A stretch of 64,000 nt of DNA from assembly GCA_963705105.1 (NCBI GenBank), contig CAVPIW010000007.1:96001-160000 (forward strand), in the 5' to 3' direction. The position numbers were made by a program, and so were the translations under genes. The number at the start of each line of letters is the position of its first letter. The stretch's first letter is position 1. The notes beneath the pieces are model-generated. The model saw only the letters and a list, made by a program, of their open reading frames with translations, had not been told where the DNA came from and ran no database searches. Of the stretch, positions 3,555 through 64,000 are shown piece after piece. This DNA is from an uncultured Nitrospiraceae bacterium. Its GTDB lineage: Bacteria > Nitrospirota > Thermodesulfovibrionia > Thermodesulfovibrionales > Dissulfurispiraceae.

Positions 3555-3861
3555 TATCACTGGAATCCAAAATAATCTGGCACAAGGATAGGGCATGATT
3601 TCTTCGCATAATAAACCCTTATCACCGCAATGAGATCTCAGGAAAGACGGGGCGAATGCGCCGAAAAGCATCGGTGCTGCGAAACCTCTGCCTTCCCGTG
3701 CAGACCATTGCAGACCAACGATCGAACAAAATTAACCTTTTACGGACACTCACACTGACACTGACACTGTTTTTCGGAGCGTTTTGCACCGTCTTTTCGT
3801 GCAAGGCAACCGTGAATTATGCTTCAGAAACCAAGCCCTATCCTCGTTTTCAAAGTCTCGC
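3555..3861 (+). repeat. Modular inverted-repeat element copy A with outer shell (near-identical to 10438-10744)
   Basis: About 300 bp direct duplication at offset 6883; inner ends CCTTATCACCGCA..GGAAAGACGGGGCG / CGTCTTTTCGTGCA; outer inverted repeat AGGATAGGG/CCCTATCCT. Confidence 0.92.
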
Positions 3862-3946
3862 CGCAAACAATTTCCTTATCGTTGCATAGGCGGTATTTGC
3901 CTCCCCGGCGGCAGCGTCGATTATTTTGGATACGAAGGAAGCGCTG

Positions 3947-4420
3947 TTACGCCCTGCTGATCAGCAGGCAGACGGCATGGGCCGCGATCCCCTCGCCCCG
4001 GCCGGTGAACCCCATACCCTCGTTCGTCTTCGCCTTGATGCTGATCCGCGAGGACGGGATGCCCGATGCGGCCATGGCGGCCTTCATCGCCTCGATGTAG
4101 GGCGCAAGCTTCGGTCTTTCGGCGATGACGACGGAGTCGATCCAGGCGACTTCATATCCCGCCGACAGGATGAGCCCGTGGATGTGTTCGAGAAGGAGAA
4201 TGCTCGACGCCCCCTTCCACCTTTCGTCCGTGTCCGGGAAATGTTTGCCGATGTCCCCGAGGCCTGCCGCGCCGATGAGGGCGTCGATGACGGCATGGCA
4301 AAGGACGTCGCCGTCCGAGTGGCCCAGGAGACCCCTGTCAAAGGGCACATCAACGCCGCCGATGACGAGCCTCCTGCCCTCGGCGAGGCGGTGCGAATCG
4401 TATCCGATGCCTATGCGCAT
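3947..4420 (-). CDS. ispF: 2-C-methyl-D-erythritol 2,4-cyclodiphosphate synthase
   Basis: 'MRIGIGYDSH', 'GHSDGDV', 'DIGKHFP', 'KAKTNEG'. Confidence 0.97.
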   Translation of the reverse strand: MRIGIGYDSHRLAEGRRLVIGGVDVPFDRGLLGHSDGDVLCHAVIDALIGAAGLGDIGKHFPDTDERWKGASSILLLEHIHGLILSAGYEVAWIDSVVIAERPKLAPYIEAMKAAMAASGIPSSRISIKAKTNEGMGFTGRGEGIAAHAVCLLISRA

Positions 4421-5115
4421 GACTTCAAAAAGGCCTCGGCGATCAGCACGTCTTCCGGCGTGGTGACCTTGATGTTCCGGTATGAGCCCATGACGATCCT
4501 CACTGTTCCCCCGTACCTTTCCACGAGTGCGGCGTCATCGGTGGCATAGTAGTCGTCGGCCGTTGCCTTCTCATAGGCCGACAGCAGCGTTCCATGCCTG
4601 AAGACCTGCGGCGTCTGGACGGACCAGAGGAGATCGCGGTCCAGTGTCCTTGACACGACGATCTCATCGCCCGACGGACGGGCTTCCTTTATGGTGTCCT
4701 TCACGGGGACGGCTGCAATGGCGCCGTCTGCACCGTCGATGGCGCTGATCAATCTTTTGACGAGATCACCGTCGACAAGAGGCCGTGCGCCGTCGTGGAT
4801 CAGGACGACCGGGAAGGACCTGCCGAGGTGCCTAAGCCCGTTCCGGACGGAATCCTGCCGCTCCTTTCCCCCTGCGATGGCGGGATCGACTCTCGGCACC
4901 GCGTAACGGGCCACGAGTTCATCGGTCAATGCCCGGTCCTCCTCTCTTACAACGGGGATGATTGTGCCGATCTCAGCAACTGATGCGAGGACTTCGAGTG
5001 ACCAGATGAGAAGCGGCTTCCCGAGGAGGCTGTGAAAGGTCTTCCGGGTCCCTGTTCCGAACCGGGTCCCGACTCCCGCTGCGGGGACAATGGCGGCGAC
5101 CCTGTCAGTACTCAT
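4411..5115 (-). CDS. ispD: 2-C-methyl-D-erythritol 4-phosphate cytidylyltransferase
   Basis: 'IVPAAGVGTR', 'GGKERQDSV', 'IHDGARP', 'VQTPQ', 'NIKVTT'. Confidence 0.97.
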   Translation of the reverse strand: MSTDRVAAIVPAAGVGTRFGTGTRKTFHSLLGKPLLIWSLEVLASVAEIGTIIPVVREEDRALTDELVARYAVPRVDPAIAGGKERQDSVRNGLRHLGRSFPVVLIHDGARPLVDGDLVKRLISAIDGADGAIAAVPVKDTIKEARPSGDEIVVSRTLDRDLLWSVQTPQVFRHGTLLSAYEKATADDYYATDDAALVERYGGTVRIVMGSYRNIKVTTPEDVLIAEAFLKSCA

Positions 5116-6082
5116 CCTTCGGCTTCGCGAAGATCATCCTTCCCGCCGTCGTCTGGAGGACGCTCGTGACGACGGCGTCGGTGTTCTTGCCGATGAGTTT
5201 CCGCCCGTTCTCCACAACGACCATGGTGCCGTCGTCGAGATAGGCCACGCCCTGGTTGTATTCCTTGCCCTCCTTGGTGACGAAGAGACTGAGCAATTCG
5301 CCCGGCAGGACGACGGGTTTCAGCACATTGGCGAGCTCGTTGATGTTCAGGACCTGCACGCCCTGAACCTGGGCGACCTTGTTAAGATTGAAATCATTGG
5401 TGATGATCTTTGCGTGCATGAGCCGCGCAACGGCTATGAGCTTCGCGTCCACCTCCCTGATCTTCGGGAAGTCCTCCTCGACGATTCTGACCGTAATGTG
5501 CGACAGCTTCTGCATGCGATGAAGCATATCGAGACCCCGCCTTCCCTTGGTCCTCCGCAGGGGATCGGGCGAATCGGCGATATACTGGAGCTCCTGCAGG
5601 ATGAACTGGGGGACGAGAAATGTGCCCTCCAGAAAACCGACATCGACAATGTCGACGATCCTGCCGTCGATGATGACGCTCGTGTCGAGGAGCTTCAGGT
5701 CCTCCTCGGCCTCCTGTCCCCTGAGCAGTTTTGTCACCGAAGGCACGGTGAGGTTCACACCCCTTGCCAGACCGGCGAAGAACCCCCCGTATCCGAGGAC
5801 GGCGCTCAGCGCGAACGACAGGGGCAGTCGTGCGTCGTCAGGAAGAATGAAACGGAGGGGATAGAGGATGAGACCGGCGCAGACGATGCCGAGGAAGAGA
5901 CCCAGAAGTCCGCCGGAGACGGTACCGAGAGTGAGACTCTTCAGGACCCGTTCAAGGAGGATCGAGAGGATGCCGAGGGCCGCGCCTGCCGCCGCGCCCG
6001 CCGGCGCGTAGCCGTAGCGCATGCCCAGGGCGGTTCCTGAGGCGATGAAGACGATGAAGATTATGATTCTCGCAAAGAACAA
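5105..6082 (-). CDS. Membrane PIN/TRAM domain protein (YacL-like)
   Basis: N-terminal TM helices; 'LLDTSVIIDGRI', 'GVAYLDDGTMVVVE', 'LQTTAGRMIFA'; usual position upstream of ispD. Confidence 0.93.
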   Translation of the reverse strand: MFFARIIIFIVFIASGTALGMRYGYAPAGAAAGAALGILSILLERVLKSLTLGTVSGGLLGLFLGIVCAGLILYPLRFILPDDARLPLSFALSAVLGYGGFFAGLARGVNLTVPSVTKLLRGQEAEEDLKLLDTSVIIDGRIVDIVDVGFLEGTFLVPQFILQELQYIADSPDPLRRTKGRRGLDMLHRMQKLSHITVRIVEEDFPKIREVDAKLIAVARLMHAKIITNDFNLNKVAQVQGVQVLNINELANVLKPVVLPGELLSLFVTKEGKEYNQGVAYLDDGTMVVVENGRKLIGKNTDAVVTSVLQTTAGRMIFAKPKDEY

Positions 6083-6160
6083 TTATCCCCGGTCTCTCTT
6101 ACGAAACGGCGCCATAAAAAGTCATTGAGTCATTATTGATAATATGAACACCTGTACCAC

Positions 6161-6235
6161 TGTCATTGCCGCAAGCGAAGCGCGTCGGCAATCCTTCTGA
6201 ACACCGGAAAGATTCCGGACAAGCCGGAATGACAA
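6161..6235. repeat. GTCATT...AATGAC palindromic REP-like repeat
   Basis: TGTCATTGCCG...GATTCCGGACAAGCCGGAATGACA; relatives at ~16753, ~16899, ~31098-31123, ~38517. Confidence 0.75.
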
Positions 6236-6346
6236 ATCCTGGTGCAGTTCGATTGTTTAAACCAGATGACAATAACAAAGCCCGGAAGGCTTTGCATCAT
6301 ATCTGCCTTCTCGGGAACAGCGATATATGAAGCGTCTCATCAGGTG

Positions 6347-7801: not shown

Positions 7802-7805
7802 GTGT

Positions 7806-10360: not shown

Positions 10361-10376
10361 ATGATTCCCTTGTCTT

Positions 10377-10437: not shown

Positions 10438-10744
10438 TATCACCGGTGTCCAAAATAATCCGACACGAGGATAGGGCATGATTTCTTCGCATAATAAACC
10501 CTTATCACCGCAATGAGATCTCAGGAAAGACGGGGCGAATGCGCCGAAAAGCCTCGGTGCTGCGAAACCTCTGCCTTCCCGTGCAGACCATTGCAGACCA
10601 ACGATCGAACAAAATTAACCTTTTACGGACACTCACACTGACACTGACACTGTTTTTCGGAGCGTTTTGCCCCGTCTTTTCGTGCAAGGCAACCGTGAAT
10701 TTTGCTTCAGAAACCACACCCTATCCTCGCTTTCAAGGTCTCGC
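10438..10744 (+). repeat. Modular inverted-repeat element copy B (near-identical to 3555-3861)
   Basis: Direct alignment by eye; about a dozen mismatches. Confidence 0.92.
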
Positions 10745-10944: not shown

Positions 10945-13428
10945 TTACCACAGGACAAACAGTTTTTTTATGTTCTCCCATTCGTCTGCGGGGCTTTCAG
11001 GCCTCTTCATCGCAAAGGCGGCAGCAGTCTTTATCCGCCTGCCTCCGCCAGGCTCTTCGCGGACGATCACGGCGCCGTCCCGGTCGGTCCTGAGGACCTG
11101 TGAGCCCGTCAGGGCCGTGAGGACTTCCTCGTGAGGATGCCCGTACCGGTTTCCGCGGCCGGCGCTGATCACGGCGATGTCGGGAGAGACGGCATGAATG
11201 AATTCCTCCGTAAACGACGACCTGCTGCCGTGGTGAGGCAGCTTCAGTATGTCGCTCTTCAGGTTCGGGCCAAGGTGAATGAGGTCTTCCTGGGCCTCCC
11301 TGCCGATGTCTCCCGTGAAGAGGACCGAGAGGTCCCGGCCCCGGATGCTCAAAACCAGCGAATCGTTGTTCACCTCGTCACTCCGGGACATGGAATAGAA
11401 GCGCTCATGGGGATGGAGCATCGTTATAACATACCCCTCTCCTTTCACTTCGTCCCCCCTCTGCAGCGCCCTGTGCGTGACTCCTTCCGGATATCCCTCG
11501 TATATCAGTCTGCCGTTGTCCCAGATTTCACCGACCCTGAACCTCCTCGTGAGGTACTCGAACCCGCCGGCATGGTCGGACTGGCCATGGGAGATGACAA
11601 GGGCATCGATGGCGCCGATGCCTGAGTATCTGAGCAGACCGGCAACGGCGAGCCCGTTTCTTCCCGTGTCGACGACGACGGTTTTCCCGTCGGGCAGCCT
11701 GATGACAGCCCCGTCGCCGTGTCCGACATCGACGACGGTGACGCTCAGCGACGGTTTCTCGATCAGTTTCATACCGGCATAGATCATGAACAGGACGGTG
11801 GCCGTGCACACGGGAATGAGCCAGGCCCCGCCCGACAGCCTCTGCAGCCGCCCTTTAATCGTTCCCCTCTCCTCCGGCGGATGCAGCCGAACACTGAGGG
11901 CGATGGTCAGGAACAGGCAGGCGTAAAAGACGATCAGCAGGATGAGGGGGTAATGGGGAATCCTCAGGGACGCAAAGCGCCACTGGCCGACCTGATGAAT
12001 CAGGCCGAGCACGCCGGCCGTCATCCCGTCGATGAAGGCGGCGAAGGGAAAGATGCCCGTCACGATGAAGATGAGCGTCGACAGCAGCGTGAGGGGCAGG
12101 AGGACGAAACCGATGAAAGGGGTGATGAAGAGATTCGTCAGGGGTGAGACGATGGAGGCGGCATGGAACGTCAGCGCGATGAGCGGCGCCGTCCCGGCCG
12201 TTGCGGCAATGGAGACGAGTGACGATGCGGCCGTCAGGCGGAGCGCTTTGCGCGCGAGGCCTTCGGCGGGGCGAATATCGTCCTCAAGCCCATCCTGCCC
12301 ATCCGCACTGTGCCCACGCCGCCCTTCCCCACCCTCCCGTGCCCTTTCCGTCACCATGCCGATGCAGAGCACAGCGACGAAGGAGAGCTGAAATGAAAGG
12401 TCCCTGAGAGCACCGGGGTCGGCGAGGACGATGACGACGGCGGCGAAGAGGACCGTGTTGAGCCAGAACCCGCGGCGTTGAACGAGGAGTCCGACGATGA
12501 AGAGGCTGATCATGATGAATGACCTGACCGCCGGGATGCTGGGCGATGCGAGGGCGAGATAGGCCCCGAGAAAGGGAAAGGCAAGCGCAGCAGCGACCTG
12601 CGTGGGCGTCAGGAAGAGGGTGAGCCGCACGAGGATACGCGCCGGCAGCAGCTTCAGGGAGAACCGCAGGAGCCCGAAAAGGACACAGAAGAGGAGGCCG
12701 AAGTGGGTGCCTGAAATGCTAAGGATATGGGCCAGCCCCGTCGCGTTGAAGTCCTCCCTCATGGCGGACGTCACGAAGGAGCGCTCTCCCGTCGTCATCG
12801 CCATGAGGAAAGCGGCCGAGTCATGACTCATGTCGCTTTTCATCCGCCTATTGATGTCTGACCTTAGCGACCCGATCAGGCCCGGACCGCTCCCGGAAAC
12901 CTCCTGCACATCCACGGCAAAGGCAGTGAGGACAGGATCTTCCGTCCATGGGTTCAGGAGAAAGGCGTCTCTGGGCACCTGCGCCGTAATGTGATACGTT
13001 TTGCCCGGCACGAGGGGACTGTTATACAGGAGCCTCACCTCTTCGGGATGGAAGGTCCTTCCCTCTTCATCCCTCACCTCCCTCACATCGAGGGTCTGCG
13101 AAAACAGGACCTGCCTGCGCGATACTTCGACAGGCTCGGTGGCAACGATGCCTTTCAGGGAAATCGTTTTTCCGGCGATCTCCTGCAATGGGATGTCAGG
13201 ACGGGAAAAAGCCTGGGCGTAGAGGAACCCCGCCGCGACCGCCACCGCCACGACAAAGGTCTTCTTTGCGGCTGACACGAAACGGGATGATGTTGGCCCT
13301 GTCCGCAGCGTCGCTGTGACGCCGGAAACGATGATGCCGAGGGCGGCGAGGAGGAGTCCCGTCAGAGGGAAGAGAGTCCTTATAAAGAAGACCGCGCAGC
13401 CGAACAGAAAAGAGGCGAAAAGAATCAT
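10945..13428 (-). CDS. comEC: DNA uptake channel ComEC/Rec2 with C-terminal metallo-beta-lactamase domain
   Basis: 'GLAHILSISGTH', 'SFQLSF', 'DVGHGD', 'ISHGQSDH', 'LPHHGS', 'YGHPH'. Confidence 0.95.
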   Translation of the reverse strand: MILFASFLFGCAVFFIRTLFPLTGLLLAALGIIVSGVTATLRTGPTSSRFVSAAKKTFVVAVAVAAGFLYAQAFSRPDIPLQEIAGKTISLKGIVATEPVEVSRRQVLFSQTLDVREVRDEEGRTFHPEEVRLLYNSPLVPGKTYHITAQVPRDAFLLNPWTEDPVLTAFAVDVQEVSGSGPGLIGSLRSDINRRMKSDMSHDSAAFLMAMTTGERSFVTSAMREDFNATGLAHILSISGTHFGLLFCVLFGLLRFSLKLLPARILVRLTLFLTPTQVAAALAFPFLGAYLALASPSIPAVRSFIMISLFIVGLLVQRRGFWLNTVLFAAVVIVLADPGALRDLSFQLSFVAVLCIGMVTERAREGGEGRRGHSADGQDGLEDDIRPAEGLARKALRLTAASSLVSIAATAGTAPLIALTFHAASIVSPLTNLFITPFIGFVLLPLTLLSTLIFIVTGIFPFAAFIDGMTAGVLGLIHQVGQWRFASLRIPHYPLILLIVFYACLFLTIALSVRLHPPEERGTIKGRLQRLSGGAWLIPVCTATVLFMIYAGMKLIEKPSLSVTVVDVGHGDGAVIRLPDGKTVVVDTGRNGLAVAGLLRYSGIGAIDALVISHGQSDHAGGFEYLTRRFRVGEIWDNGRLIYEGYPEGVTHRALQRGDEVKGEGYVITMLHPHERFYSMSRSDEVNNDSLVLSIRGRDLSVLFTGDIGREAQEDLIHLGPNLKSDILKLPHHGSRSSFTEEFIHAVSPDIAVISAGRGNRYGHPHEEVLTALTGSQVLRTDRDGAVIVREEPGGGRRIKTAAAFAMKRPESPADEWENIKKLFVLW

Positions 13429-13446: not shown

Positions 13447-13777
13447 ACCTTATCGCTGCAACAGGACCGCCGGAAAGGCGGGGTGTATGCGCCACCAAAT
13501 AGTAGACAGTAAACAGTAGACAAAAAACGGAACCAATCCGCGAACACCAGACGGGAAGGCTGATGTGGTGAAAAGCCTTTCCTCTAAGATACCTTGTTTA
13601 TCCCCAGACCACCCTTTGCCGTATCTGTTGATACCGGAAGCCCGTCAGGCAGCAGGCGCTGAACACCTCGATATGTCTCATCATCGCATTGGAAAGGCTT
13701 TGAACCATATCTGCCTTCCCGGCGGCACCGTCGCCTTCGGCAAGGCTTTGAGGCGCTTCGCCCCGCCTTTTCATGCA
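13447..13777 (+). repeat. Modular inverted-repeat element copy C
   Basis: ACCTTATCGCTGCA..GGAAAGGCGGGGTG ... CGCCCCGCCTTTTCATGCA; internal modules shared with copies F, H, L. Confidence 0.9.
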
Positions 13778-13786
13778 CCTGAAAGG

Positions 13787-21401: not shown

Positions 21402-21616
21402 ACTTTGTAGTTGCATAGAAAGGCGGGGCGAAGCGCCTCAAAGCCTTGCTGAAGGCGACGATGCGCCTCGTCAGGTTTGTCTTTCAGGATTCCACTCTTC
21501 GTGTGATCGACCATTGGCTTGAAAGGTTGTCTTCTATGAGGGTTGCGGTGTCGCCGCATCAAGGTTTTCGGCGCATACACCCCGCCTTTCCCGGGAGTGT
21601 ATTGCAAAGATAAGGT
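21402..21616 (-). repeat. Modular inverted-repeat element copy D
   Basis: TTGCATAGAAAGGCGGGGCGAAGCGCC ... CCCCGCCTTTCCC..TTGCAAAGATAAGGT; same layout as copy J. Confidence 0.9.
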
Positions 21617-25707: not shown

Positions 25708-25991
25708 ACCTTATCGTTGCAATACACTTCCGGGAAAGGCGGGGCGTATGCGCCGAAAACCTTGCTGCGGCGACACCATAACTCTCACAGAAGACATCCT
25801 TTCAAACCAATGGTCGATGCCACAAAGAATTGACTCCTGTAGGGGCCGTCCCCCGAACCGCCCCTACATTAATGACGCGTCCCATACGGATCATTTCAGG
25901 CAAAGGGCTGAAGAAAATTAACCTTTTACGGACACTCACACTGCCACTGACACTGTTTTTCAGAGCGCTTCGCCACGCCTTTTCACGCAAC
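25708..25991 (+). repeat. Modular inverted-repeat element copy E (contains a GTAGGGGC...GCCCCTAC REP)
   Basis: Family termini; same layout as copy G. Confidence 0.9.
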
Positions 25992-26003
25992 TTTAATTGA
26001 TCT

Positions 26004-28629: not shown

Positions 28630-28946
28630 AATTGCTACACAGGCCCCCGAAAAGGGCGGGGCGAAGATGCCGCTATAAAAGGCATAGTCATTGGTCGGCA
28701 GTCGCCAGTCGGAACAAGGCCACAAACACCCAGACGTAAAGGCTGATGTGGTGAAAAGCCTTTCCGCTACGATACCTTGTTCATCACCAGACCACACTTT
28801 GCCGTGTCGATTGACACCATAGCCCTTCAGGCTGCAGGCGCTTAACACCGTAGAAATGTCTCATCATCGCATTGGAAAGGCTTTGAACCATATCTGCCTT
28901 CCCGGCGGAGGCGCTTCGCCACGCCTTTTCATTCCAACAACAAGGT
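28630..28946 (+). repeat. Modular inverted-repeat element copy F
   Basis: GAAAAGGGCGGGGCG ... CGCCACGCCTTTTCATTCCAACAACAAGGT; modules shared with C, H, L. Confidence 0.88.
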
Positions 28947-31129: not shown

Positions 31130-31412
31130 ACCTTTCTGTTGCATGAAAAGGCGGGGCGCAGCGCTCTGAAAAACAGTGTCAGTGACAGTGTGAGTGTCAG
31201 TAAAAGTTCACATTTTTTCAGCCGTCGGCCTGAAATAGCTTCATCGATGTCGGGCGTTCGGGGAACGGCCCCTACACTATTTCATCCTTATGTGTCATCG
31301 ACCATTGGCGTATAGTTCATCTCTCGTTTTGATACAGGTGTCGCCGCATCAGGGTTTTCGGCGCATTCACCCCAGCCCCGCCTTTCCCGGGAGTGTATTG
31401 CAACGATAAGGT
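31130..31412 (-). repeat. Modular inverted-repeat element copy G
   Basis: TTGCATGAAAAGGCGGGGCG ... CCCCGCCTTTCCC..TTGCAACGATAAGGT. Confidence 0.9.
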
Positions 31413-33464: not shown

Positions 33465-33640
33465 AACGTTAAGCAGTGTTAACCACTTAACTTTAGCAGT
33501 GTCGCCTGTGATCAGGGTTTCCTCTTAATACCTTTTCAATTCAATATCATTTCTTCTCTAAACGATGGATCAGAGGCTGGCACAATTCTTTCTATAAAGA
33601 AACTCCGAACGAACTGATCGCACGATGATAGACATAGAAA
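33465..33640 (+). promoter_or_regulatory. Upstream control unit of cytochrome 1: GTTAA/TTAAC array, sigma-54-like promoter, conserved leader motif
   Basis: AACGTTAAGCAGTGTTAACCACTTAAC 33465-33491; TGGCACAATTCTTTCT 33578-33593; ATCGCACGATGATAGACATAGAAA 33617-33640; same arrangement before cytochrome 2. Confidence 0.7.
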
Positions 33641-33663
33641 GCAAGAAAAGGAGGTATCACAGC

Positions 33664-35766
33664 ATGAAGAGATTTTTTGCAATTCTCAGCATCATCTGCC
33701 TGGCGCTGGCTTTTGGGCAGGACGTGAGCTTCGCCGCAAAGCCCGTGTATTACACGGTAATCGTGGCGTCGTCCAGCCCGAACACCGGCGTCGCCATCAC
33801 CGTCAGCCCTAGCGACGCCGATAGGCAAAGCAACGGCACAACACAGTTCACACGCAGTTACAGGAGCGGCACATCGGTGACACTCACCGCGCCCGATACT
33901 GCAAGTGGCAACAGGTTTCAGAAGTGGACCCGGAACGGCACAGATGTAACCCCATCCAACCCCACGGTCACTTTTACGATCAGCACCAACACCGCGATGA
34001 CCGCCGTCTACACGACGACCACCGCGCCTCCCCCTGACACGACGGCGCCTGCCACCTCCGCAAGCCCTGCGGGAGGCACCTACACCAGCGCACAGACGGT
34101 CACCCTGACAAGGAATGAGGCGGGCACGACCTTCTACTGCACAGGCAGCTCCACCTGCACCCCCTCGACCACCTACTCCGCGCCTGTCACCATCAGCGGA
34201 TCCACCACTCTGAGATTCTACTCCAGGGACACCGCCAGCAACACGGAGACCACCAAGACAGCGACCTACACCATAAATGCGGCTCCTCCGGCCACCGATC
34301 ACTCGGGCCTGACCTGGACGGGAAGCTACACAATCTGCCAGCAGTGCCACAGCACTGAAGTGAACGATGTCCTGAACAGCGTTCACTACCAGTGGAAAGG
34401 CAGTGCCGCCGAGATGACCAGTGGCACGACGTCCCAGGGCAAGATCGTCCAGCGCGACGCCAGTGGCAAAATCATCACCGGCGCGAGCGCGATGAACGCA
34501 TACTGCGTCAACGTCCTCGGCAACTGGGCCGGCTGCGGCTCCTGCCACGTCGGTCTCGGCGCAGAGCCGACGGCGACCAACAAAGACAACATCGACTGTC
34601 TCCTCTGCCACCAGAAGGACTACAAGAGGGTAAAGGTAAACGGCGTTTTTCAGCCTGACACGGCGAACATGACCATAACCATGGACCAGGCCCTCCGGAC
34701 TCTTCACAGGCCTGTCAGGGCAAACTGCCTGCAGTGCCATGCCAAGGCCGGCGGCGGAGACGCCGTCAAGCGCGGCGATATGGCCCTTGCCAATGCAACC
34801 ACCACGGACAGGAACTACGATGTGCACATGGCATCCACGGCGAACGGGAACATCGTTTGCCAGCAGTGCCACACCTATACCAATCACAAGGTGGCCGGAA
34901 GAGGCAGCGACATCAGGCCGATCGATTCGACCGTTGCGGTGAGCTGCTCGACCTCAACCTGCCACTCCGGCAAGAGCGGCACGTCCGGTCATTCCACGTC
35001 GGCCGTCAACAGGCACGTGAACCGCGTGGCTTGCCAGACCTGCCACATCCCGACCTATGCGAAAAACGCAGCCGATACCGCCGCCACCGAGGCGACGGAG
35101 ACGCACCGCGACTGGACCGTTCCTGAGTACAATGCCACCGCGAAGAGGTGGGAGCCGACACCGACGAAGGCGAACAACCTGAGGCCCGTGTATGCCCATT
35201 GGAACGGCACGAGCTGGGGCTCCAACCTCAATGATGCTCCGACAGCCGTTAGCGGCGTTTATCTGCTTTCCGAGCCTGAAGGAGGCGTGAACGTCGCCAA
35301 CAGCAAGCTCTATCCGTTCAAATACAAAACGGCAAAACAACCTTATGCGGCGTCGCTGAATGTCCTCATTGCCATCGACACGGCGAAGTACTGGGCATTT
35401 GCCGTCCCTCCGTATGTGCCGACGGCAACCGATGTCGACGCGACAGTGCGTCAGGGCCTGACGAACATGGGCTACGCATCGACCACGGCATACACGTGGG
35501 TCACCACCGCCGAGTATCAGCTCCTGAGCCACCAGGTTTCACCCAGTGCCAATGTGCTGCAGTGCACGAGCTGTCACGTGTCGGGCACGGCGGCGCAGAT
35601 GAACCTCCAGAGCCTCGGCTACGGCCTGAAGAAGCCGACGTCGGATCTCTGCAACGACTGCCACAGTCTAAGGTCTTACTCCAGCAGTTATAGCAACTTC
35701 ACGTCCGTCCACAGCAGGCACACGTCACGGACGAACTGCTCGAGCTGTCACAATTTCTCGAGGTAG
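33664..35766 (+). CDS. Exported decaheme c-type cytochrome (octaheme tetrathionate reductase-like core + 2 extra hemes) with N-terminal Ig-like domains, copy 1
   Basis: 9 CxxCH + 1 CxxxxCH; Sec signal from ATG 33664 after AGGAGG; 'SPAGGTYTSAQTVTL' domain; 'HYQW..GK..NAYC' OTR-like pattern (inference). Confidence 0.88.
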   Translation: MKRFFAILSIICLALAFGQDVSFAAKPVYYTVIVASSSPNTGVAITVSPSDADRQSNGTTQFTRSYRSGTSVTLTAPDTASGNRFQKWTRNGTDVTPSNPTVTFTISTNTAMTAVYTTTTAPPPDTTAPATSASPAGGTYTSAQTVTLTRNEAGTTFYCTGSSTCTPSTTYSAPVTISGSTTLRFYSRDTASNTETTKTATYTINAAPPATDHSGLTWTGSYTICQQCHSTEVNDVLNSVHYQWKGSAAEMTSGTTSQGKIVQRDASGKIITGASAMNAYCVNVLGNWAGCGSCHVGLGAEPTATNKDNIDCLLCHQKDYKRVKVNGVFQPDTANMTITMDQALRTLHRPVRANCLQCHAKAGGGDAVKRGDMALANATTTDRNYDVHMASTANGNIVCQQCHTYTNHKVAGRGSDIRPIDSTVAVSCSTSTCHSGKSGTSGHSTSAVNRHVNRVACQTCHIPTYAKNAADTAATEATETHRDWTVPEYNATAKRWEPTPTKANNLRPVYAHWNGTSWGSNLNDAPTAVSGVYLLSEPEGGVNVANSKLYPFKYKTAKQPYAASLNVLIAIDTAKYWAFAVPPYVPTATDVDATVRQGLTNMGYASTTAYTWVTTAEYQLLSHQVSPSANVLQCTSCHVSGTAAQMNLQSLGYGLKKPTSDLCNDCHSLRSYSSSYSNFTSVHSRHTSRTNCSSCHNFSR

Positions 35767-36343: not shown

Positions 36344-38419
36344 ATGAAGAGAATTTTGGCAGTTGTCAGCATCATCTGTATGGTGCTGGCCTTCGGACCG
36401 GGCACAAGCTTCGCCGAGGACTACACGCTGACCGTGGCATCCTCGAACCCGAGCAGCGGCGTCTCCATCACCGTAACCCCAAACGACAGAAACGGCAGGG
36501 GGAGCGGCACGACCCAATTCACCCGCACCTACCGGGAAAACACGTCGGTGACACTCACCGCGCCAGCCACTGTTAGCGGGAGGACTTTTCAGAAGTGGAC
36601 CAGGAACGGCTCCGACTATTCGACGAGCCTGGCCACCAGGGTCACAATGAGCAGGGACCGCACGATGACAGCCGTGTACACGACGACGACCAGTGACACC
36701 ACACCACCTGTGACGACTGCAAGCCCGGCGGGAGGCACCTACACCAGTGCACAGACGGTCACCCTGACAAGGAACGAGGCGGGCACGACCTTCTACTGCA
36801 CAGGCAGCTCCACCTGCACCCCCTCGACCACCTACTCCGCGCCTGTCACCATCAGCGGATCCACCACTCTGAGATTCTACTCCAGGGACAGCGCGGGCAA
36901 CACGGAGACCACCAAGTCAGCGACCTACACGATCAACATCCCTCAGGCCACCGATCACTCGGGCCTCACCTGGACGGGAAGCTACACAATCTGCCAGCAG
37001 TGCCACAGCACTGAAGTGAACGATGTCCTGAACAGCGTTCACTACCAGTGGAAAGGCAGTGCCGCCGAGATGACCAGTGGCACGACGTCCCAGGGCAAGA
37101 TCGTCCAGCGCGACGCCAGTGGCAAAATCATCACCGGCGCGAGCGCGATGAACGCATACTGCGTCAACGTCCTCGGCAACTGGGCCGGCTGCGGCTCCTG
37201 CCACGTCGGTCTCGGCGCAGAGCCGACGGCGACCAACAAAGACAACATCGACTGTCTCCTCTGCCACCAGAAGGACTACAAGAGGGTTAAGGTCAATGGC
37301 GTATTCCAACCCGACCCGACGATGACCATCACCATGGACCAGGCCCTCCGGACTCTCCACAGGCCTGTCAGGGCAAACTGCCTGCAGTGCCATGCCAAGG
37401 CCGGCGGCGGAGACGCCGTCAAGCGCGGCGATATGGCCCTTGCCAATGCAACCACCACGGACAGGAACTACGATGTGCACATGGCATCCACGGCGAACGG
37501 GAACATCGTTTGCCAGCAGTGCCACACCTATACCAATCACAAGGTGGCCGGAAGAGGCAGCGACATCAGGCCGATCGATTCGACCGTTGCGGTGAGCTGC
37601 TCGACCTCAACCTGCCACTCCGGCAAGAGCGGCACGTCCGGTCATTCCACGTCGGCCGTCAACAGGCACGTGAACCGCGTGGCCTGCCAGACCTGCCACA
37701 TCCCGACCTATGCGAAAAACGCAGCCGATACCGCCGCCACCGAGGCGACGGAGACGCACCGCGACTGGACCGTTCCTGAGTACAATGCCACCGCGAAGAG
37801 GTGGGAGCCGACACCGACGAAGGCGAACAACCTGAGGCCCGTGTATGCCCATTGGAACGGCACGAGCTGGGGCTCCAACCTCAATGATGCTCCGACAGCC
37901 GTTAGCGGCGTTTATCTGCTTTCCGAGCCTGAAGGAGGCGTGAACGTCGCCAACAGCAAGCTCTATCCGTTCAAATACAAAACGGCAAAACAACCTTATG
38001 CGGCGTCGCTGAATGTCCTCATTGCCATCGACACGGCGAAGTACTGGGCATTTGCCATCCCTCCGTATGTGCCGACGGCAACCGATGTCGACGCGACAGT
38101 GCGTCAGGGCCTGACGAACATGGGCTACGCATCGACCACGGCATACACGTGGGTCACCACCGCCGAGTATCAGCTCCTGAGCCACCAGGTTTCACCCAGT
38201 GCCAATGTGCTGCAGTGCACGAGCTGTCACGTGTCGGGCACGGCAACGCAGATGAACCTTCAGAGTCTCGGCTACGGCCTGAAGAAGCCGACGTCCGATC
38301 TCTGCAACGACTGCCACAGCCTGGAGTCCTATACGAGCAGTTACAACAACTTCACGTCCGTCCACAGCAGGCACACATCACGGACGAACTGCTCAAGCTG
38401 TCACAATTTCTCGAGGTAG
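36344..38419 (+). CDS. Exported decaheme c-type cytochrome, copy 2 (heme region near-identical to copy 1)
   Basis: Same ten heme motifs; diverged first Ig-like domain. Confidence 0.88.
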   Translation: MKRILAVVSIICMVLAFGPGTSFAEDYTLTVASSNPSSGVSITVTPNDRNGRGSGTTQFTRTYRENTSVTLTAPATVSGRTFQKWTRNGSDYSTSLATRVTMSRDRTMTAVYTTTTSDTTPPVTTASPAGGTYTSAQTVTLTRNEAGTTFYCTGSSTCTPSTTYSAPVTISGSTTLRFYSRDSAGNTETTKSATYTINIPQATDHSGLTWTGSYTICQQCHSTEVNDVLNSVHYQWKGSAAEMTSGTTSQGKIVQRDASGKIITGASAMNAYCVNVLGNWAGCGSCHVGLGAEPTATNKDNIDCLLCHQKDYKRVKVNGVFQPDPTMTITMDQALRTLHRPVRANCLQCHAKAGGGDAVKRGDMALANATTTDRNYDVHMASTANGNIVCQQCHTYTNHKVAGRGSDIRPIDSTVAVSCSTSTCHSGKSGTSGHSTSAVNRHVNRVACQTCHIPTYAKNAADTAATEATETHRDWTVPEYNATAKRWEPTPTKANNLRPVYAHWNGTSWGSNLNDAPTAVSGVYLLSEPEGGVNVANSKLYPFKYKTAKQPYAASLNVLIAIDTAKYWAFAIPPYVPTATDVDATVRQGLTNMGYASTTAYTWVTTAEYQLLSHQVSPSANVLQCTSCHVSGTATQMNLQSLGYGLKKPTSDLCNDCHSLESYTSSYNNFTSVHSRHTSRTNCSSCHNFSR

Positions 38420-38543: not shown

Positions 38544-39132
38544 CCCTATCGTTGCATACGCCCGACCGAAAGGTGGGGCGAAGAGGCCACTGCATGAGTC
38601 ATTAAATCATTTCCAGCAGTCGACAGTCGCAACCAGACCACGAACACCGAGGCGGGGAGGCTGATGTGGCGAAAAGCCTTTCCGCTAAGATACCTTGTTC
38701 ATCCCCGGACCACCCTTTGCCGTGTCCGTCGACGTCAAATGCCCGTCAGGCAGCAGGCGCTGAACACCCTGAGATGGACACGTTGCCTCATACGCCGGAC
38801 CGAAAGGCGGGGTGAAGCACCGAAAAGCATCGGTGCTGCGAAACCGCTGCCGTCCCGTTGAGAGCATGGAAGCACAACTGTTGATAATACAAAGGATGAA
38901 ATCTTTACAACCAATAATAACCAATCATGCTCGCTATCAGCGAGGCTTTGAGGCGCTTTGCCCTGCCTTTCGGTGCACCTGCCGAAATGGTCCTCATCAT
39001 CGCATTGGAAAGGATTTGAACCATATCTGCCTTCCCGGAGGCAGCGGCAGCGGTAGTGACACCGACACTGACACTCACACTGTCACTGTTTTTCAGAGCG
39101 CTTCGCCCCGCCTTTTCATGCAGCGACAAGGT
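38544..39132 (+). repeat. Modular inverted-repeat element copy H, with a second family member nested at ~38770-38991
   Basis: Outer ends CCCTATCGTTGCA / TGCAGCGACAAGGT; inner GAAAGGCGGGGTG ... GCCCTGCCTTTCGGTGCA; ~300 bp near-identical in reverse to 63668-63979. Confidence 0.9.
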
Positions 39133-44866: not shown

Positions 44867-44874
44867 GCGCGTTC

Positions 44875-45177
44875 ACCTTTCAATTGCATGAAAAAGCGGG
44901 GCGAAGCGCCTCAAAGCCTTGCTGAAGGCGACGGTGAGTATTGTCAGGTTCATCGTTCAGGATTGTACTTTCCAGTTTGAAAAGGCGGGACAAAGTGCCT
45001 CAAAGCCTTGCCGATAGCGAGCATGATCATTTGAAATGGGACATTCGGGATTCCACCCTTTGCGTTATCAACCGTCGGCCTGACATGATCCGTATGGGAA
45101 GGCAAAGGTTTCGCAGCACCAAGGCTTTTCGGCATCTTCGCCCCGCCTTTCCGGATGTCCTATTGCATCGATACGGT
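44875..45177 (-). repeat. Modular inverted-repeat element copy I (two tandem right ends)
   Basis: TTGCATGAAAAAGCGGGGCG at 44884; second GAAAAGGCGGGAC at ~44979; left end CCCCGCCTTTCC..TTGCATCGATACGGT. Confidence 0.88.
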
Positions 45178-45762: not shown

Positions 45763-45973
45763 ACCTTATCGTTGCATACGCCTTCCGGAAAGGCGGGGTG
45801 TATGCGCTGAAAACCTTGCTGCGGCGACACCTGTATCTCAAGGAAAGGCGAATTATAAACCAATGGTCGATGACACAAAGAGTGGATTCCTGAAACACGA
45901 AGCTGACAATGCGTATCGTCGCCTTCAGCAAGGCTTTGAGGCGCTTTGCCCCGCCTTTTCATACAACAGAAAG
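45763..45973 (+). repeat. Modular inverted-repeat element copy J
   Basis: ACCTTATCGTTGCA..GGAAAGGCGGGGTG ... GCCCCGCCTTTTCATACAAC. Confidence 0.9.
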
Positions 45974-49242: not shown

Positions 49243-49325
49243 CATTGTCGCTGCAGAAGCCGTCCGGAAAGGCGGGGCAAATGCGCCGAGGCGCTTCGCC
49301 CCGCCTTTTCATGCAGCAGCAAGGT
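49243..49325 (+). repeat. Empty minimal member (K) of the modular element family
   Basis: CATTGTCGCTGCA..GGAAAGGCGGGGCAAATGCGCC joined directly to GAGGCGCTTCGCCCCGCCTTTTCATGCAGCAGCAAGGT. Confidence 0.88.
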
Positions 49326-54927: not shown

Positions 54928-54933
54928 GTTCTC

Positions 54934-58313: not shown

Positions 58314-58330
58314 TCTTCATCCCTCCTAAT

Positions 58331-60143: not shown

Positions 60144-60194
60144 AGTCGATCCTCCTCAAATGTATTTTTTTCAAGCCAAAACCATACTGAACCG

Positions 60195-60839
60195 TTAAAC
60201 GCCGAGGGCGCTGCAGACTTTCCCGAAGATATCGTCGATGCTCCCGGTGCCTGCGACGGATTTCAGGATTCCCTTGTTCTTGTAATAATCGAAGAGGGGA
60301 GCCGTCTGGGCGGTGTAGACGTCGAGTCTCTTCTTGATCGTCGCCTCCTTGTCGTCGTCCCTCTGGAAGAGCTCTCCTCCGCACTTGTCACAGACGCCAT
60401 CCTTCTTGGGCGCCGAGAAGTACAGATTATACATCTGTCCGCAGGCCTTGCATGTCCTCCGGCCTGTCAGCCTCTTCATGAGGTCCTCCATGGGGACATC
60501 GACGCTGAGCGCGGCCGTCAACGGCATGCTCAGTCCCGCGAGCATCTTGTCGAGGGCCTCAGCCTGGGCGGTGTTTCTGGGGAAACCATCGAGGATGTAT
60601 CCCTTTTTGCAGTCGTCCTTTTTCAGTCTCTCTTCGACCATACCGAGGACGACGCTGTCCGGCACCAGTTCACCCTTATCCATATAGGACTTCGCTTCTT
60701 TTCCGAGCGCCGTCCCTGCACCCACAGCCGCCCTGAGAAGATCGCCCGTGGATATCTGGGGAATGGGGTACTTATCGACAAGCTTTTTCGCCTGAGTTCC
60801 CTTGCCTGCACCAGGTGCACCGAGAAGGACTAATCTCAT
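60195..60839 (-). CDS. adk: Adenylate kinase (Zn-lid type)
   Basis: 'GAPGAGKGTQ', 'LDGFPR', CxxC...CxxC lid. Confidence 0.98.
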   Translation of the reverse strand: MRLVLLGAPGAGKGTQAKKLVDKYPIPQISTGDLLRAAVGAGTALGKEAKSYMDKGELVPDSVVLGMVEERLKKDDCKKGYILDGFPRNTAQAEALDKMLAGLSMPLTAALSVDVPMEDLMKRLTGRRTCKACGQMYNLYFSAPKKDGVCDKCGGELFQRDDDKEATIKKRLDVYTAQTAPLFDYYKNKGILKSVAGTGSIDDIFGKVCSALGV

Positions 60840-60934
60840 GGAAGAACCTCCAAGTGGAATTATTTTGAGGCATCTATAAATTACTGAAAAGGAAAAATTA
60901 ATGCAATTTTAAAATTTAAATCAGCACATTAAAA

Positions 60935-61540
60935 TTACTTATATTCCTGTTCATGAAGGCCTGTCAGATATTGCTTCAGCTGTTCAAGCGCCATTCTGCG
61001 GTGGCTGAGAGCGTCTTTTTCATCGGGTGACATTTCTGCGAAGGTCCTGGCGTGTCCCCGGGGGAAAAAGACTGGGTCATAACCGAAACCGGACCTGCCC
61101 CGGGACTCACGGGCAATGGTTCCCTCCGCTAAACCCCGGAATAATACAACGTTCCCTTCCGGAAATGCAAGGGCGAGACAACACACGAACCGGGCGCCTC
61201 TTGAGCCGTCTGCGACGCCCTTCATCTCATCAAGGAGTTTGACAATGTTGGCCTCGTCACCGGCGCACTCACCGGCATATCTGGACGAGTAGACACCCGG
61301 AGCGCCTCCCAGGGCATCCACCTCGAGCCCCGAATCGTCGGCGACGGACAGGCGCTGCGAACAAAGTGCCGTCTCGACGGCCTTTTTCGTCGCATTGCCC
61401 TCAAAGGTGTCCCTGTCCTCCGCGACATCGGTGCATGCCGGAAATGCATCGACGGAAAGTACGGTCACATCGACACTGCGGAGCATCCGCTCCAGTTCTT
61501 CTACCTTTTTTCTGTTCCTGGTGGCGAGAACGATGTCCAT
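60935..61540 (-). CDS. rdgB: dITP/XTP pyrophosphatase
   Basis: 'LATRN.KK', 'ADDSGL', 'FGYDP', 'SHR'. Confidence 0.95.
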   Translation of the reverse strand: MDIVLATRNRKKVEELERMLRSVDVTVLSVDAFPACTDVAEDRDTFEGNATKKAVETALCSQRLSVADDSGLEVDALGGAPGVYSSRYAGECAGDEANIVKLLDEMKGVADGSRGARFVCCLALAFPEGNVVLFRGLAEGTIARESRGRSGFGYDPVFFPRGHARTFAEMSPDEKDALSHRRMALEQLKQYLTGLHEQEYK

Positions 61541-61728
61541 GGTCCGTTAGCGGGCACGCATCGGCTCATGCCGGCGAACCGGCGCAGCGCGGAATGGAGA
61601 TTGATGAAACCGGGTTATGGAATAGAGGCCCAGCAAAACGAAGTAAGATAGCATTCCGGGCAGGCAAAATGCAAATCCCGCAAGGCCTGAGTTGACAATC
61701 ACCGGAGGCATTGTTTAAGCTAAACATC

Positions 61729-61805
<77 letters not shown>

Positions 61806-62115
61806 AAGAAAATCAGAGGGTTACCGGTCCGGTAGCCCTTTCTTTTTGGCAGTTCTTTCTAAAGGATTTCTAACGAAGCCGAGAGTTCCTTCCAAGAGAC
61901 CTGCTTGCTGCCTGTCAAATTCCATGTCCTCAAACAGGTGAGAGGTGGTCCCCGAAGATCAGACAGTCGTTATGAAGGTGTAAAATGCGCGTCTGGAGAG
62001 GGCTCACCGAGATGAGCAGGAGTTGCTGCAGACCGGCCGGTCCGACGCAGGCATGGGCGCGATCCGTGTCGTCAGGGCACAGGCGACAATCCCGCGCAGC
62101 GCCGCGACAGAAGTT

Positions 62116-62349
62116 CTACTCTTGCTGTTCGACGTACTCAATCCCGTTTGATCTCAGACAATGTCGATAAATGATCTCATAGACGAACTCATCCCTGTCA
62201 GATCTCTTTTCTGCTTCCGCCGAACACCGCGCTATTACCACTCTCGGGCGGTACTCATACCAGCTAAAGGCTCCGCCCATAACAAGAAGCAGAAGAATAA
62301 CGAGTCCTGCAAATAAACCTTTTGAAGTTCCTGATTTTTGCTTCATCAC
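62116..62349 (-). CDS. Small hypothetical membrane-anchored protein with two Cys
   Basis: One TM helix then 'RC.....Y.HCLR..G'. Confidence 0.6.
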   Translation of the reverse strand: MMKQKSGTSKGLFAGLVILLLLVMGGAFSWYEYRPRVVIARCSAEAEKRSDRDEFVYEIIYRHCLRSNGIEYVEQQE

Positions 62350-62727
62350 AGCCCGGCCGGTCTGGGGCGGGCGCAGACATGCGCGCGGCCGATCTCCGGC
62401 GTCACTGTCTTTTCCGCATAACGGTTCGGGCGTTCTTTGGGAGCATCGATGGTCACCAACTCAAGACCCTCGTCGATTCTATTGCATTGTTTGTGACAAG
62501 ATGAAACAATCCATGAACAGAGGGCCATGAGTTATCTCCTATAGAGGAAGGATTCTGCAGAGGAAGGATTTTGCCGCTTTGTTTTAGTTTAGCACACACC
62601 GCTAATTAACTCACTGCAATAAAAAACCCCGGCCTCCATCTTTCCTGATCATCGACTCCGGACTACCCCGCATCTCTGCTTCGATATGTGGTACCATGAA
62701 ACGAAAGATCACAGACCGGAGGGAAAT

Positions 62728-63597
62728 ATGAGAAGATCATTACTCATACAGGTCTTGTCAGCCGCATTCTTATTTGTCGTGGCCCTTTGTTCATCCGGCG
62801 ATGCAGTATGGTCCGGTGTCACATGGGACCAACCGGCAGGACCAACCGATCATGGCCTGAGAGTTTCGTCATCGGGCACTCCTCTCCATCTTGCGAAAAA
62901 GAGACCTGCGCACACCGAAAACGATATCCCTGAAAGTTCGCAGCCTGCAAAACAGGCAGATGCTCCATCGCAGGATAGGGGTGGGCTTGTCGACCCCCGC
63001 GACGGGGGCCTTGATGTCGCCCTGGGCGAATGGGCCGTTATCCTCGAAGCTGATACGATCCGTCCCGGAACCGTTACCTTTATTGTCCGTAACAGCGGCG
63101 CCCGTGCGCACGGCTTCCGAATCAGGTCGGAAGGGGGGCGCGGCAGGGACCGCTTTGAAGCGCGGACGGAACTCATTCAGCCGGGCGGGTCGTCAAAGCT
63201 GACCGTTGATCTGAAAAGCGGTTCCTACCGGGTGGATTGTTTCGTCGAAGAACCGGGAGTGGGAGACCACGCCGCCCTCGGGATGAGAGGCCTGCTGACG
63301 GTGAGGCCCGATGCCCCTTTCCTGTCGACGAAAGCCCCTGTCGCTGACACGGCCGTATCCATCGAAGGATTTGTCTTCTCCCCGCAGACCCTGAAGATAC
63401 AGGCGGGATCGACAGTCGTCTGGACAAACAGGGACCCCGCTCCGCATACGGTGACGGCGGATGATGGGACCTTCGATTCCGGGATGCTCCAGTCCGGGGC
63501 AACATTCAGAAGGACCTTCGAAAAAGCCGGCACCTTCCGCTACACGTGCACGATCCATCCTTCCATGAAGGGCGTTGTGGAAGTCGCAGCGCCATAG
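62728..63597 (+). CDS. Exported protein with two cupredoxin (type-1 Cu) domains
   Basis: Signal peptide after GGAGG; 'AHGF...CFVEEPGVGDHAALGM' and 'PHTV...CTIHPSM' ligand sets. Confidence 0.85.
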   Translation: MRRSLLIQVLSAAFLFVVALCSSGDAVWSGVTWDQPAGPTDHGLRVSSSGTPLHLAKKRPAHTENDIPESSQPAKQADAPSQDRGGLVDPRDGGLDVALGEWAVILEADTIRPGTVTFIVRNSGARAHGFRIRSEGGRGRDRFEARTELIQPGGSSKLTVDLKSGSYRVDCFVEEPGVGDHAALGMRGLLTVRPDAPFLSTKAPVADTAVSIEGFVFSPQTLKIQAGSTVVWTNRDPAPHTVTADDGTFDSGMLQSGATFRRTFEKAGTFRYTCTIHPSMKGVVEVAAP

Positions 63598-63624
63598 AGC
63601 GCGAGCCCTCCCTCTGCGGGCCGA

Positions 63625-64000
63625 ACTTGCGGAAAAGGCGGGGCGAAGCACTTCAAGACCTTGCTGAAGGCTACGATGCCTCGGGAAAGGCAAATATGGT
63701 TCAAAGCCTTTCCAATGCGATGATGAGGACCATTTCGGCAGGTGCACCGAAAGGCAGGGCAAAGCGCCTCAAAGCCTCGCTGATAGCGAGCATGATTGGT
63801 TATTATTGGTTGTGAAGATTTCATCCTTTGTATTATCAACAGTTGTGCTTCCATGCTCTCAACGGGACGGCAGCGGTTTCGCAGCACCGATGCTTTTCGG
63901 TGCTTCACCCCGCCTTTCGGTCCGGCGTATGAGGCAACGTGTCCATCTCAGGGTGTTCAGCGCCTGCTGCCTGACGGGCTTTTGGTATCAATCGACACGG
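63625..64000 (-). repeat. Modular inverted-repeat element copy L (nested type, runs off the window)
   Basis: GAAAAGGCGGGGCGAAGC right end; interior is the reverse complement of 38741-39035. Confidence 0.9.

Follow-up and report, generated by a model that had tools for sequence, protein, structure and literature searches.

A family of recombining MITEs with IS1380-type ends and a hairpin core in the genome of a Nitrospirota bacterium

The repeats described here are non-coding, non-autonomous MITEs, and they duplicate 4 bp of their target. Our preferred and, we think, probable reading is that they form a recombining family whose members were likely mobilized in trans by the transposase from one IS1380 subgroup, and that their arms make up a hairpin core of ~175 nt whose folded single-stranded form is the likely target of selection. 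This reading draws on copy number, target duplications, empty sites, the match of the ends to IS1380, the homology of the arms, nesting, recombination between copies and covariation of the core across genera.

Copies in the window and in the genome

The window, i.e., the whole 64,000-nt stretch of DNA that was analyzed, contains twelve copies (Table 1). All of them had been listed by the sequence-only reading, and profile HMMs found them at the same positions and reproduced the order of modules in each. The boundaries needed a small correction: the element itself starts with CC and ends with GG, and the A and T outside these are part of the target duplication. The m1-m6 layout of copies A and B stood, but these copies proved to be passengers within a second MITE family. 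Copy F has the m3-m4 layout described, but its left end is not detectable; copy I has the order m1..m7-m5, but also holds a second, inner right end; and copy L starts at 63625 as described, but runs ~190 bp past the window edge. Additional fragments of the family lie in the window at 6286, 10377, 20725, 30917 and 31473. As had been noted, the window contains no transposase: none of the 42 ORFs scanned, of 152 listed, matches a transposase family.

Table 1. Copies of the repeat family in the window (L, left end; R, right end)
Feature	Position	Strand	Description
Copy A	3558..3854, inner part 3616-3809	+	Arms m1-m6, decayed IS1380-type ends, flanked by the ends of another MITE family ("family B"), which makes 9-bp duplications
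Copy B	10441..10737, inner part 10499-10692	+	Composite identical in build to copy A
Copy C	13448..13786	+	Left end, lead-in of heptamer repeats, core made of m3-m4, short arm m5, right end
Copy C hairpin core, m3/m4 version	13548..13724	+	104 bits; belongs to the training set of the model
Copy D	21402..21616	-	L-m2-m5-R, the most frequent layout; core 21418-21591, 47 bits
Copy E	25708..25992	+	L-m2-m8-m6-R chimera with REP-like palindrome (25839-25863) and hexamer repeats
Copy F	28630..28946	+	m3-m4 core 28731-28907 and right end; left end decayed
Copy G	31130..31412	-	L-m2-m8-m6-R
Copy H	38544..39132	+	m3/m4 element whose loop holds a nested m1/m7 element (inner core 38800-38972); m6 and right end follow
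Copy I	44876..45176	-	L-m1-m7-R, then m5-R; exact 4-bp duplication at flanks; core 44979-45152
Copy J	45763..45973	+	L-m2-m5-R; core 45787-45959
Copy K	49243..49325	+	Ends alone (internal deletion form)
Copy L	63625..64000	-	Nested composite as in H, but m5-R at end; inner core 63748-63920; runs beyond the window edge

The source organism is a sulfate-reducing, Dissulfurispiraceae-like Nitrospirota bacterium, whose assembly is 99% complete in 19 contigs. Two proteins of the window fall in 90%-identity clusters named after Nitrospirota and Dissulfurispiraceae, and a Chloroflexota host was rejected on these grounds. An HMM scan of this whole genome identified 703 clusters of the repeat family, which occupy 151.5 kb (3.6% of the genome) and include matches to 612 left and 653 right ends. 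A 12-mer of the core that is common to the copies occurs 567 times (4 expected under a Markov model), and a weight matrix found 901 sites in the genome and 2 in the reversed genome. The clusters show 234 distinct layouts with median lengths of ~70-370 bp, and 91 of the 703 contain two left or two right ends. None of the 361 full copies is overlapped over more than half its length by a gene predicted with our own gene finder. Among intergenic gaps longer than 150 bp, 638 of 1529 hold a copy, with no bias in orientation relative to transcription (126 vs 132). The elements are thus short, non-coding and multicopy, as MITEs are, and also have terminal inverted repeats, in the form of imperfect 13-bp ends and inner arms of ~45 bp.

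Matches to the right-end patterns in 390 genomes of the class were confined to the source genome itself; a collection of genome contigs yielded four loci from one relative, metagenome contigs one ordinary copy, and viral contigs none. The exact left-end pattern had no match in the genome-contig and metagenome-contig collections, from which records close to the source genome may be excluded, and a plasmid search gave no match better than E 2. In Rfam searches, only two tRNAs in the window exceeded the gathering threshold, and eight loci of relatives gave nothing at gathering score.

Target sites and the link to IS1380

An exact 4-bp target duplication flanks 105 of 183 paired copies (shuffled mean 11.9, maximum 20) and is missing from the other 78; duplications of 5 bp were found in four copies and of 6 bp in none. 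The TA target of the ERIC/Correia type was rejected, as 2-bp duplications occur at chance level (18 vs 18.6 expected). Empty sites were found in related strains. A 1308-bp contig of run X2 precisely skips 305 bp, equal to copy I and one duplicate, and runs X3, X5 and X6 skip 343 bp, equal to copy C plus 4, at a site where the flanking 4-mers agree in only two of four letters. Empty alleles for copies E and F are imprecise. The duplications and the empty sites of copies I and C bear out the earlier suggestion of a mobile element.

Both 13-bp ends match, polarity included, the ends of one IS1380 subgroup. IS1380 is the family used as outgroup for piggyBac. The matching subgroup, whose transposase passes NF033539, was found in 10 of 390 class genomes and not in the source genome. 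On the MITE end matrices (null 99th percentile, 11.1 bits), 20 of 23 scored flanks of this subgroup reached 12 bits, four of the scored copies being from one genome; the corresponding number for 24 other IS1380 loci was 1 of 47 flanks. The MITE right end scores higher upstream of the transposase gene in 9 of 10 cases and the left end downstream of it in 12 of 13. Complete copies of the subgroup carry an exact 4-bp duplication in six of nine cases, i.e., the MITE and the IS share duplication length and an AT-rich target, and two genomes holding the IS also contain elements of ~190-210 bp with the same ends. The sequence-only reading had found no obvious match among its nearest analogues; for the termini there is a known counterpart in this IS1380 subgroup.

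It had also named, as an outcome that would speak against it, termini of a catalogued IS enclosing nested deletion derivatives of one parent. The first half of this turned out to be the case, but the interiors are not derived by deletion from the IS copies tested. Module HMMs did not match six full IS copies (best E 0.22), and among 60 loci, of which most were IS loci, the core model had no match at E<0.01. Beyond its terminus, one IS left end, picked after inspection, agrees with the m7 arm at 26 of 40 positions, and the likeness is confined to the first ~53 bp. No IS1380 gene was found in the 99% complete source genome, although an unassembled copy is possible because the assembly comprises 19 contigs. 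The collections searched yielded no autonomous element that has these exact long arms, and plasmids and viral contigs gave no close relatives of the subgroup transposase.

Several candidate parents were rejected: the IS1380 gene of the relative G004 has other ends, and a motif match beside an IS1380 remnant in genome G051 lies outside that IS. None of the four-helix-bundle or PF01797 genes is enclosed by both ends, and PF13366 was not found.

Modules, recombination and the hairpin core

The modules m1/m7, m2/m5 and m3/m4 are pairs of a left and a right arm, and each pair belongs to one of three paralogous versions of a single ~175-nt hairpin core; m1 and m2 are colinear homologues, as are m5 and m7. 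The four observed two-arm layouts occur 108, 71, 43 and 22 times, and plain L-m1-m5-R and L-m2-m7-R layouts do not occur. The remaining modules, m6 and m8, are captured host repeats: m6 lies away from the termini in 98 of 436 matches, and m8 in 27 of 80, the other 53 being with ends. The picture of freely combined cassettes in the sequence-only reading gives way to homologous arms with two pairings absent. The m2 segment could not be clustered into usable subtypes. REPINs and BIMEs are paired REP palindromes beside a RAYT gene; RAYT-associated palindrome pairs do not describe this family, in which m8 is a minor passenger. None of the four PF01797 genes has an m8 cluster within 2.5 kb.

The mosaics come from nesting and from recombination between copies. 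In copy H, joints that skip the nested part were found in related-strain data. Twenty-three family-B composites share both outer flanks, yet carry either m6 (14) or m7 (9), and swaps cluster at a mid-element motif common to the copies. Across 108 copies, r2 drops with distance from 0.31 to 0.03-0.05. The Spearman coefficient (-0.32) and the four-gamete failure (0.95) both lie outside 60 clonal simulations (-0.17 to 0.11 and 0.55-0.83, respectively), which supports the earlier proposal that the copies recombine.

The core was found in 71 of 151 class genomes and not found in 80. A model built on m3/m4 cores alone also recovers m1/m7 and m2/m5 copies. Compensatory base pairs occur across species, as in structured non-coding RNA: both partners have changed in 20 of 35 pairs (114 cells vs 41 shuffled and 17-37 slid), in 30 sequences from 13 genomes that are related to one another, with relatedness uncorrected. 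In 37 loci, mismatches of the G·U type outnumber those of the A·C type (66 vs 27) in an alignment fitted to the structure; G·U exceeds A·C in 25 vs 5 sequences in that alignment and in 21 vs 7 in an unfitted one, and the strand bias per column is weak (19 vs 9, p 0.09). A tandem-GA loop is kept on one strand in 22 of the 37 loci, and loop length is 81-99 nt in 32 of them. The structured character proposed earlier is supported by pairing across genera, the G·U excess and the tandem GA; the signs that one particular strand is the folded one are mixed, since the counts per sequence favor it and the count per column and the similar folding of both strands do not. By a reading by eye, distant cores appear to sit under several IS1380 end types; we rely on the eye here because only 1 of 26 distant cores (shuffled mean 0.5) passed an automated search for a surrounding end repeat and duplication. 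Two further end types were seen.

Mechanism, alternatives and related elements

In the mechanism that we propose, the transposase would recognize the 13-bp ends and insert copies into AT-rich 4-mers in gene gaps, and the parent IS would have been lost after a burst. Copies landing in or beside each other, or other repeats, would generate new layouts, which may then recombine at stem motifs common to the copies or move via the ends of two different copies. Chimera formation fits, because IS1380 enzymes are reported, in the available text of PMC9330008 and PMC3281130, to accept end-like sites and capture adjacent DNA. The fold-back stem might favor the spread of the element itself or its tolerance inside transcripts, rather than serve as a host regulator; this step is the weaker one. 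A tentative and rather doubtful extension is that the ~175-nt hairpin is itself the selected unit, a structured single-stranded (RNA/DNA) module that persists class-wide via the ends of successive IS1380 subgroups, its fold joining the ends or recruiting the transposase. If so, it would act as a portable enhancer of transposition that parasitizes at a level beneath that of ordinary MITEs, and it would offer a way into the question of how IS1380 finds its ends.

The same IS1380-type MITE could also carry a stem that is only a long, imperfect inverted repeat made of protein-binding sites in double-stranded DNA, whose symmetry is maintained by arm-to-arm copying, with no fold selected. Both strands of one core do fold alike (-62.2 and -61.1 kcal/mol), and rare variants are not depleted in the stem (2.1-2.5 per site in unanchored stem parts vs 2.0 in the loop). 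The lack of orientation bias and the likeness of one IS left end to the m7 arm point the same way, and strand-biased mutation could also yield a G·U excess. Arm-to-arm copying would, however, erase a 2x2 mismatch, yet the tandem GA is kept, the loop length is steady and the G·U excess persists in the unfitted alignment; we consider this explanation unlikely. A host-domesticated regulatory RNA that spread by benefiting the host, e.g., a stability or RNase III element located between the genes of operons, would account for the occupied gaps and the covariation and has precedents in Correia and ERIC, which guide cleavage by RNase III or RNase E (PMC10969869, PMC3049150, in part). It is very improbable, given copies without orientation bias, insertions that differ between close strains and the many class genomes in which the core was not found.

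Two further explanations concern movement and seem to us extremely improbable. The number of layouts, the swaps at a common motif and the internal swap within family-B composites would suit a dedicated site-specific system that exchanges interchangeable cassettes between fixed ends, but two of six two-arm pairings are missing, linkage decays gradually, m6 and m8 behave as free host repeats and 91 clusters have two ends of one kind. Equally hard to credit is a resident transposase of another family: the genome has several multicopy IS and 15 PF01609 matches, but no matching ends among the multicopy IS listed, whereas the IS1380 subgroup matches both ends, polarity and target.

Known bacterial MITEs (Correia/NEMIS, ERIC, RUP, Nezha, Chunjie, MITEPsy1, MITEPye1) are likewise <500 bp, intergenic and without transposase, with terminal inverted repeats, target duplication and a stem-loop, and their parent IS is likewise inferred from end similarity; a load of 3.6% resembles the top values reported for them (711 ERIC copies in Photorhabdus, "up to 2%" of a genome) and at the same time sets the present family apart; and the available text of these sources does not name IS1380 as a MITE parent (PMC10969869, PMC3184786, PMC3049150, PMC3189936, PMC11578231). 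Its target is a variable 4-mer, not the TA given as a feature of the Correia/ERIC/YPAL class in parts of PMC2759123 and PMC9330008, and its core is common to genera and families, but according to a passage in PMC3184786 MITE cores are not similar between different bacteria. IS1380-family IS and transposable modules (ISEcp1, ISPme1, IS1247), as described in part in PMC9330008 and PMC3281130, share 13-bp ends and a short duplication; unlike them, the present elements lack a transposase gene as well as any trace of IS coding sequence. Pneumococcal BOX, BIME/NIME and Porphyromonas BrickBuilt are composite repeats of variable length with reused blocks and tandem repeats inside a MITE, but here the blocks are mostly paralogous hairpin arms and nested elements, not tandem units, and ends and target differ (PMC3049150, PMC4596501, in part). 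By description, Geobacter multicopy intergenic sequences are also alike, being families of palindromic and 6-8-mer repeats that fill many gene gaps, often several per gap (PMC2700814, PMC2996986, in part).

The study links a specific transposase subgroup to an orphan repeat that makes up 3.6% of a genome, and because of this link the repeat is testable in a laboratory strain. It also documents, with measurements, recombination among hundreds of MITE copies within one bacterial chromosome. The structure of the core is conserved between genera whose elements have different ends, counter to the common view that nothing but the ends matters. Should mobility depend on the fold, this would bear on the little-understood mechanism of IS1380; if not, the family is an unusually well-resolved ordinary MITE burst.

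Copies and transposition of the main repeat family

The genome under study (4.23 Mb, 99% complete, encoding sulfate-reduction genes) contains 567 occurrences of the core 12-mer against 4 expected. The window occupies C7:96001-160000 of this genome. Of five 90%-identity protein clusters, two gave a lineage: those of AprB and Sat bear Nitrospirota and Dissulfurispiraceae names. HMMs built for each module detected 612 left and 653 right ends genome-wide, in 703 clusters that total 151.5 kb (3.6% of the genome), and all twelve copies (A-L) claimed for the window in the sequence-only reading were found as described. With a self-trained gene finder, none of 361 full copies overlapped a predicted gene by more than half, and 638 of 1529 gene gaps longer than 150 bp held a copy. 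Gene gaps of the window also hold eight copies of a separate 34-bp repeat, and the window encodes tandem, near-identical multiheme cytochromes of ~700 aa with CHB_HEX_C domains (see table).

The main repeat family is a transposed element. A pattern search for its ends found 402 left and 427 right, forming 183 pairs, of which 105 had an exact 4-bp direct repeat outside the CC...GG termini (shuffled mean 11.9, maximum 20); the duplication has the consensus T-W-W-A. Empty sites, proposed earlier as a check, were found in sequencing runs of related strains. In run X2 a 1308-bp contig passes straight from window position 44870 to 45176; the 301+4 bp that it precisely lacks are copy I and one duplicate. 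Copy C is absent from X3, X5 and X6, runs of three studies, in which 13442 is joined to 13786 with loss of the copy plus 4 bp; the 4-mers flanking copy C agree in only two letters. Relatives' alleles at E and F also lack the copy, but not with exact boundaries. In its testable properties the family is a MITE, and it is not a member of the TA-duplicating Correia/ERIC class.

Copies A and B lie within a second MITE, family B (~245 bp), which has 66 right ends in this genome, 36 of them with its own interior. Its pairs show 9-bp duplications in 11 of 29 cases, whereas lengths of 5-8 and 10-13 give 0-1 in this unshuffled comparison. By eye, family B ends look like those of a resident DDE element; this element has two copies, which together make up a composite that shows a 9-bp duplication.

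Coordinates of family B composites and neighboring or additional features
Feature	Location	Remark
Family B composite	window 3558-3854	around copy A
Family B composite	window 10441-10737	around copy B
34-bp repeat family	window 1445, 2181, 10814, 20600, 21662, 24772, 31444, 33390	gene gaps
ComEC-type competence gene	window 10945-13428	adjoins copy C
Multiheme cytochrome gene	window 33625-35766	
Multiheme cytochrome gene	window 36344-38419	
DDE element	C12:145183-146456	
PF01797 gene	C6, near 957998-958324	
378-aa gene (L090)	C5:53825-55377	within palindromic repeat
378-aa gene (L091)	C5:59225-60778	within palindromic repeat
PF05635 gene (L093)	C9:319600-320700	between hexamer repeats
PF05635 gene (L092)	C6:827900-829600	between hexamer repeats; directly adjoins partial m2-m5-R copy

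The likely transposase

No matching ends occurred among the listed multicopy IS of the genome, and no IS1380 gene was found in it. PF13701 matches were present in 112 of 390 class genomes; among 26 loci read of the 30 matches listed, L057 alone resembled the MITE ends. Its protein passes the NCBIfam IS1380 model, and close relatives, here the IS1380 subgroup, occur in 10 of the 390. The 105 duplicated copies supplied 13-bp scoring matrices, on which 20 of 23 flanks of the subgroup reached at least 12 bits; among 24 other IS1380 loci one flank in 47 did so, and it belongs to a separate insert beside the IS (null, n=300: 99th percentile 11.1, maximum 15.0). The IS end that lies upstream of the transposase gene matched the MITE right end (9/10), and the downstream one matched the left end (12/13). 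Six of nine complete subgroup copies, four of the nine from one genome, had an exact 4-bp duplication, and two carriers of the IS (G110 and G165) also have elements of ~190-210 bp bearing these same ends. A transposase of this subgroup likely moved the MITE in trans. The MITE behaves like IS1380 derivatives, yet no cognate transposase was found in its host and its interior does not come from the IS copies tested.

Other elements were noted elsewhere in the genome. A 378-aa gene, presumably IS110-like, is present in two copies, and upstream of the PF01797 gene is what we take to be a group II intron 5' fragment-like sequence behind an attC-like palindrome.

A conserved hairpin core

Modules m2/m5, m1/m7 and m3/m4 are inverted partners, consensus L-m2-m5-R and L-m1-m7-R (L and R, element ends) are colinear homologues, and a covariance model from m3/m4-type cores alone recovers D, J and I as well as the inner parts of H and L, at 35-50 bits on the left-to-right strand. 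One ~175-nt core therefore exists as three paralogous versions. Four of the modules nearly always accompany an end (m1 173/175, m2 323/327, m5 185/189, m7 157/162), and free interchange was not borne out, m1-m5 and m2-m7 layouts numbering 0. The REP-like palindrome m8 also stands alone in 23 clusters. Hexamer repeat m6 is present too around a four-helix-bundle (PF05635) gene on contig C9, where the L093 repeats match it.

Other genera hold the core pattern in multiple copies (G013 33, G072 24, G004 19, G070 10; reversed control 0-1), single matches elsewhere often being chance. The public record of G004 (loci L026-L029), titled Chloroflexota, is probably mislabeled: this genome falls in the family of the Nitrospirota-like host. 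Matches to the core model occur in 71 of 151 genomes of the class, spread over 10 of the 21 families listed, and in 10 of 141 genomes of the phylum, two of which lie outside the class; at E<0.01 the model matched none of 60 loci, mostly IS loci, and no Rfam family fits. In 30 cores from 13 genomes, 86% of cells are paired and 20 of 35 pairs changed on both sides, with 114 such cells versus 41 shuffled and 17-37 with slid partners, counts that ignore kinship.

From 53 hits, 37 loci were kept after opposite-strand and second hits were left out; in them G·U-type mismatches outnumbered A·C-type ones 66 to 27, and 22 have GA/GA as the 2x2 inner loop, both in an alignment fitted to the structure; an unfitted alignment gave 99 to 61 (21 versus 7 sequences; columns 19 versus 9, p 0.09). 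Three results speak against a functional RNA: one core folds in much the same way on either strand, the unanchored parts of the stem show no depletion of rare variants, and copies have no orientation bias to transcription (126 with, 132 against between co-directional genes; self-trained gene finder).

By eye, the core lies within IS1380-subgroup ends (L210, L215, G004 copies), L033-type IS1380-like ends (L217, L206, L211), L054-type-like ends (L199) and two further end types. Provisionally, then, the same core is carried under several end types, provisionally because an automated caller recovered both end repeat and duplication for just 1 core in 26.

Origin of the mosaics

The copies recombine, as had been supposed: linkage decays, and the signal exceeds clonal simulations. 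Between sites 1-5 nt apart, r2 is 0.31 in 108 copies of L-m2-m5-R; past 80 nt it has dropped to 0.03-0.05. None of 60 clonal simulations on the fitted tree gave values as extreme as those observed for Spearman (-0.32) and four-gamete failure (0.95); in 39 L-m1-m7-R copies the signal is weaker (-0.10, p 0.02). Two left or two right ends occur in 91 of 703 clusters, and run contigs carry an m3/m4 element without the insert of copy H. Family B composites with common outer flanks on both sides hold m6 in 14 cases and m7 in 9, suggesting an internal exchange.

Among the titles and abstract openings listed, with ISfinder outside the search, no description of an IS1380-derived MITE or of this repeat family was found. 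Comparisons drew on parts of PMC3049150, PMC2700814, PMC2996986, PMC11578231, PMC3281130 and PMC9330008, and of PMC2759123, PMC3189936, PMC10969869, PMC10813416, PMC3184786, PMC11602168 and PMC4596501; the MITE census of PMC11602168 may include the main family.

The mobile element is accounted for. A plausible second route to mosaics is that an IS1380 enzyme would use end-like sites and capture adjacent DNA; such enzymes are said to accept these sites and take along adjacent DNA (PMC9330008). DNA uptake via the ComEC-type gene could putatively feed recombination between copies.
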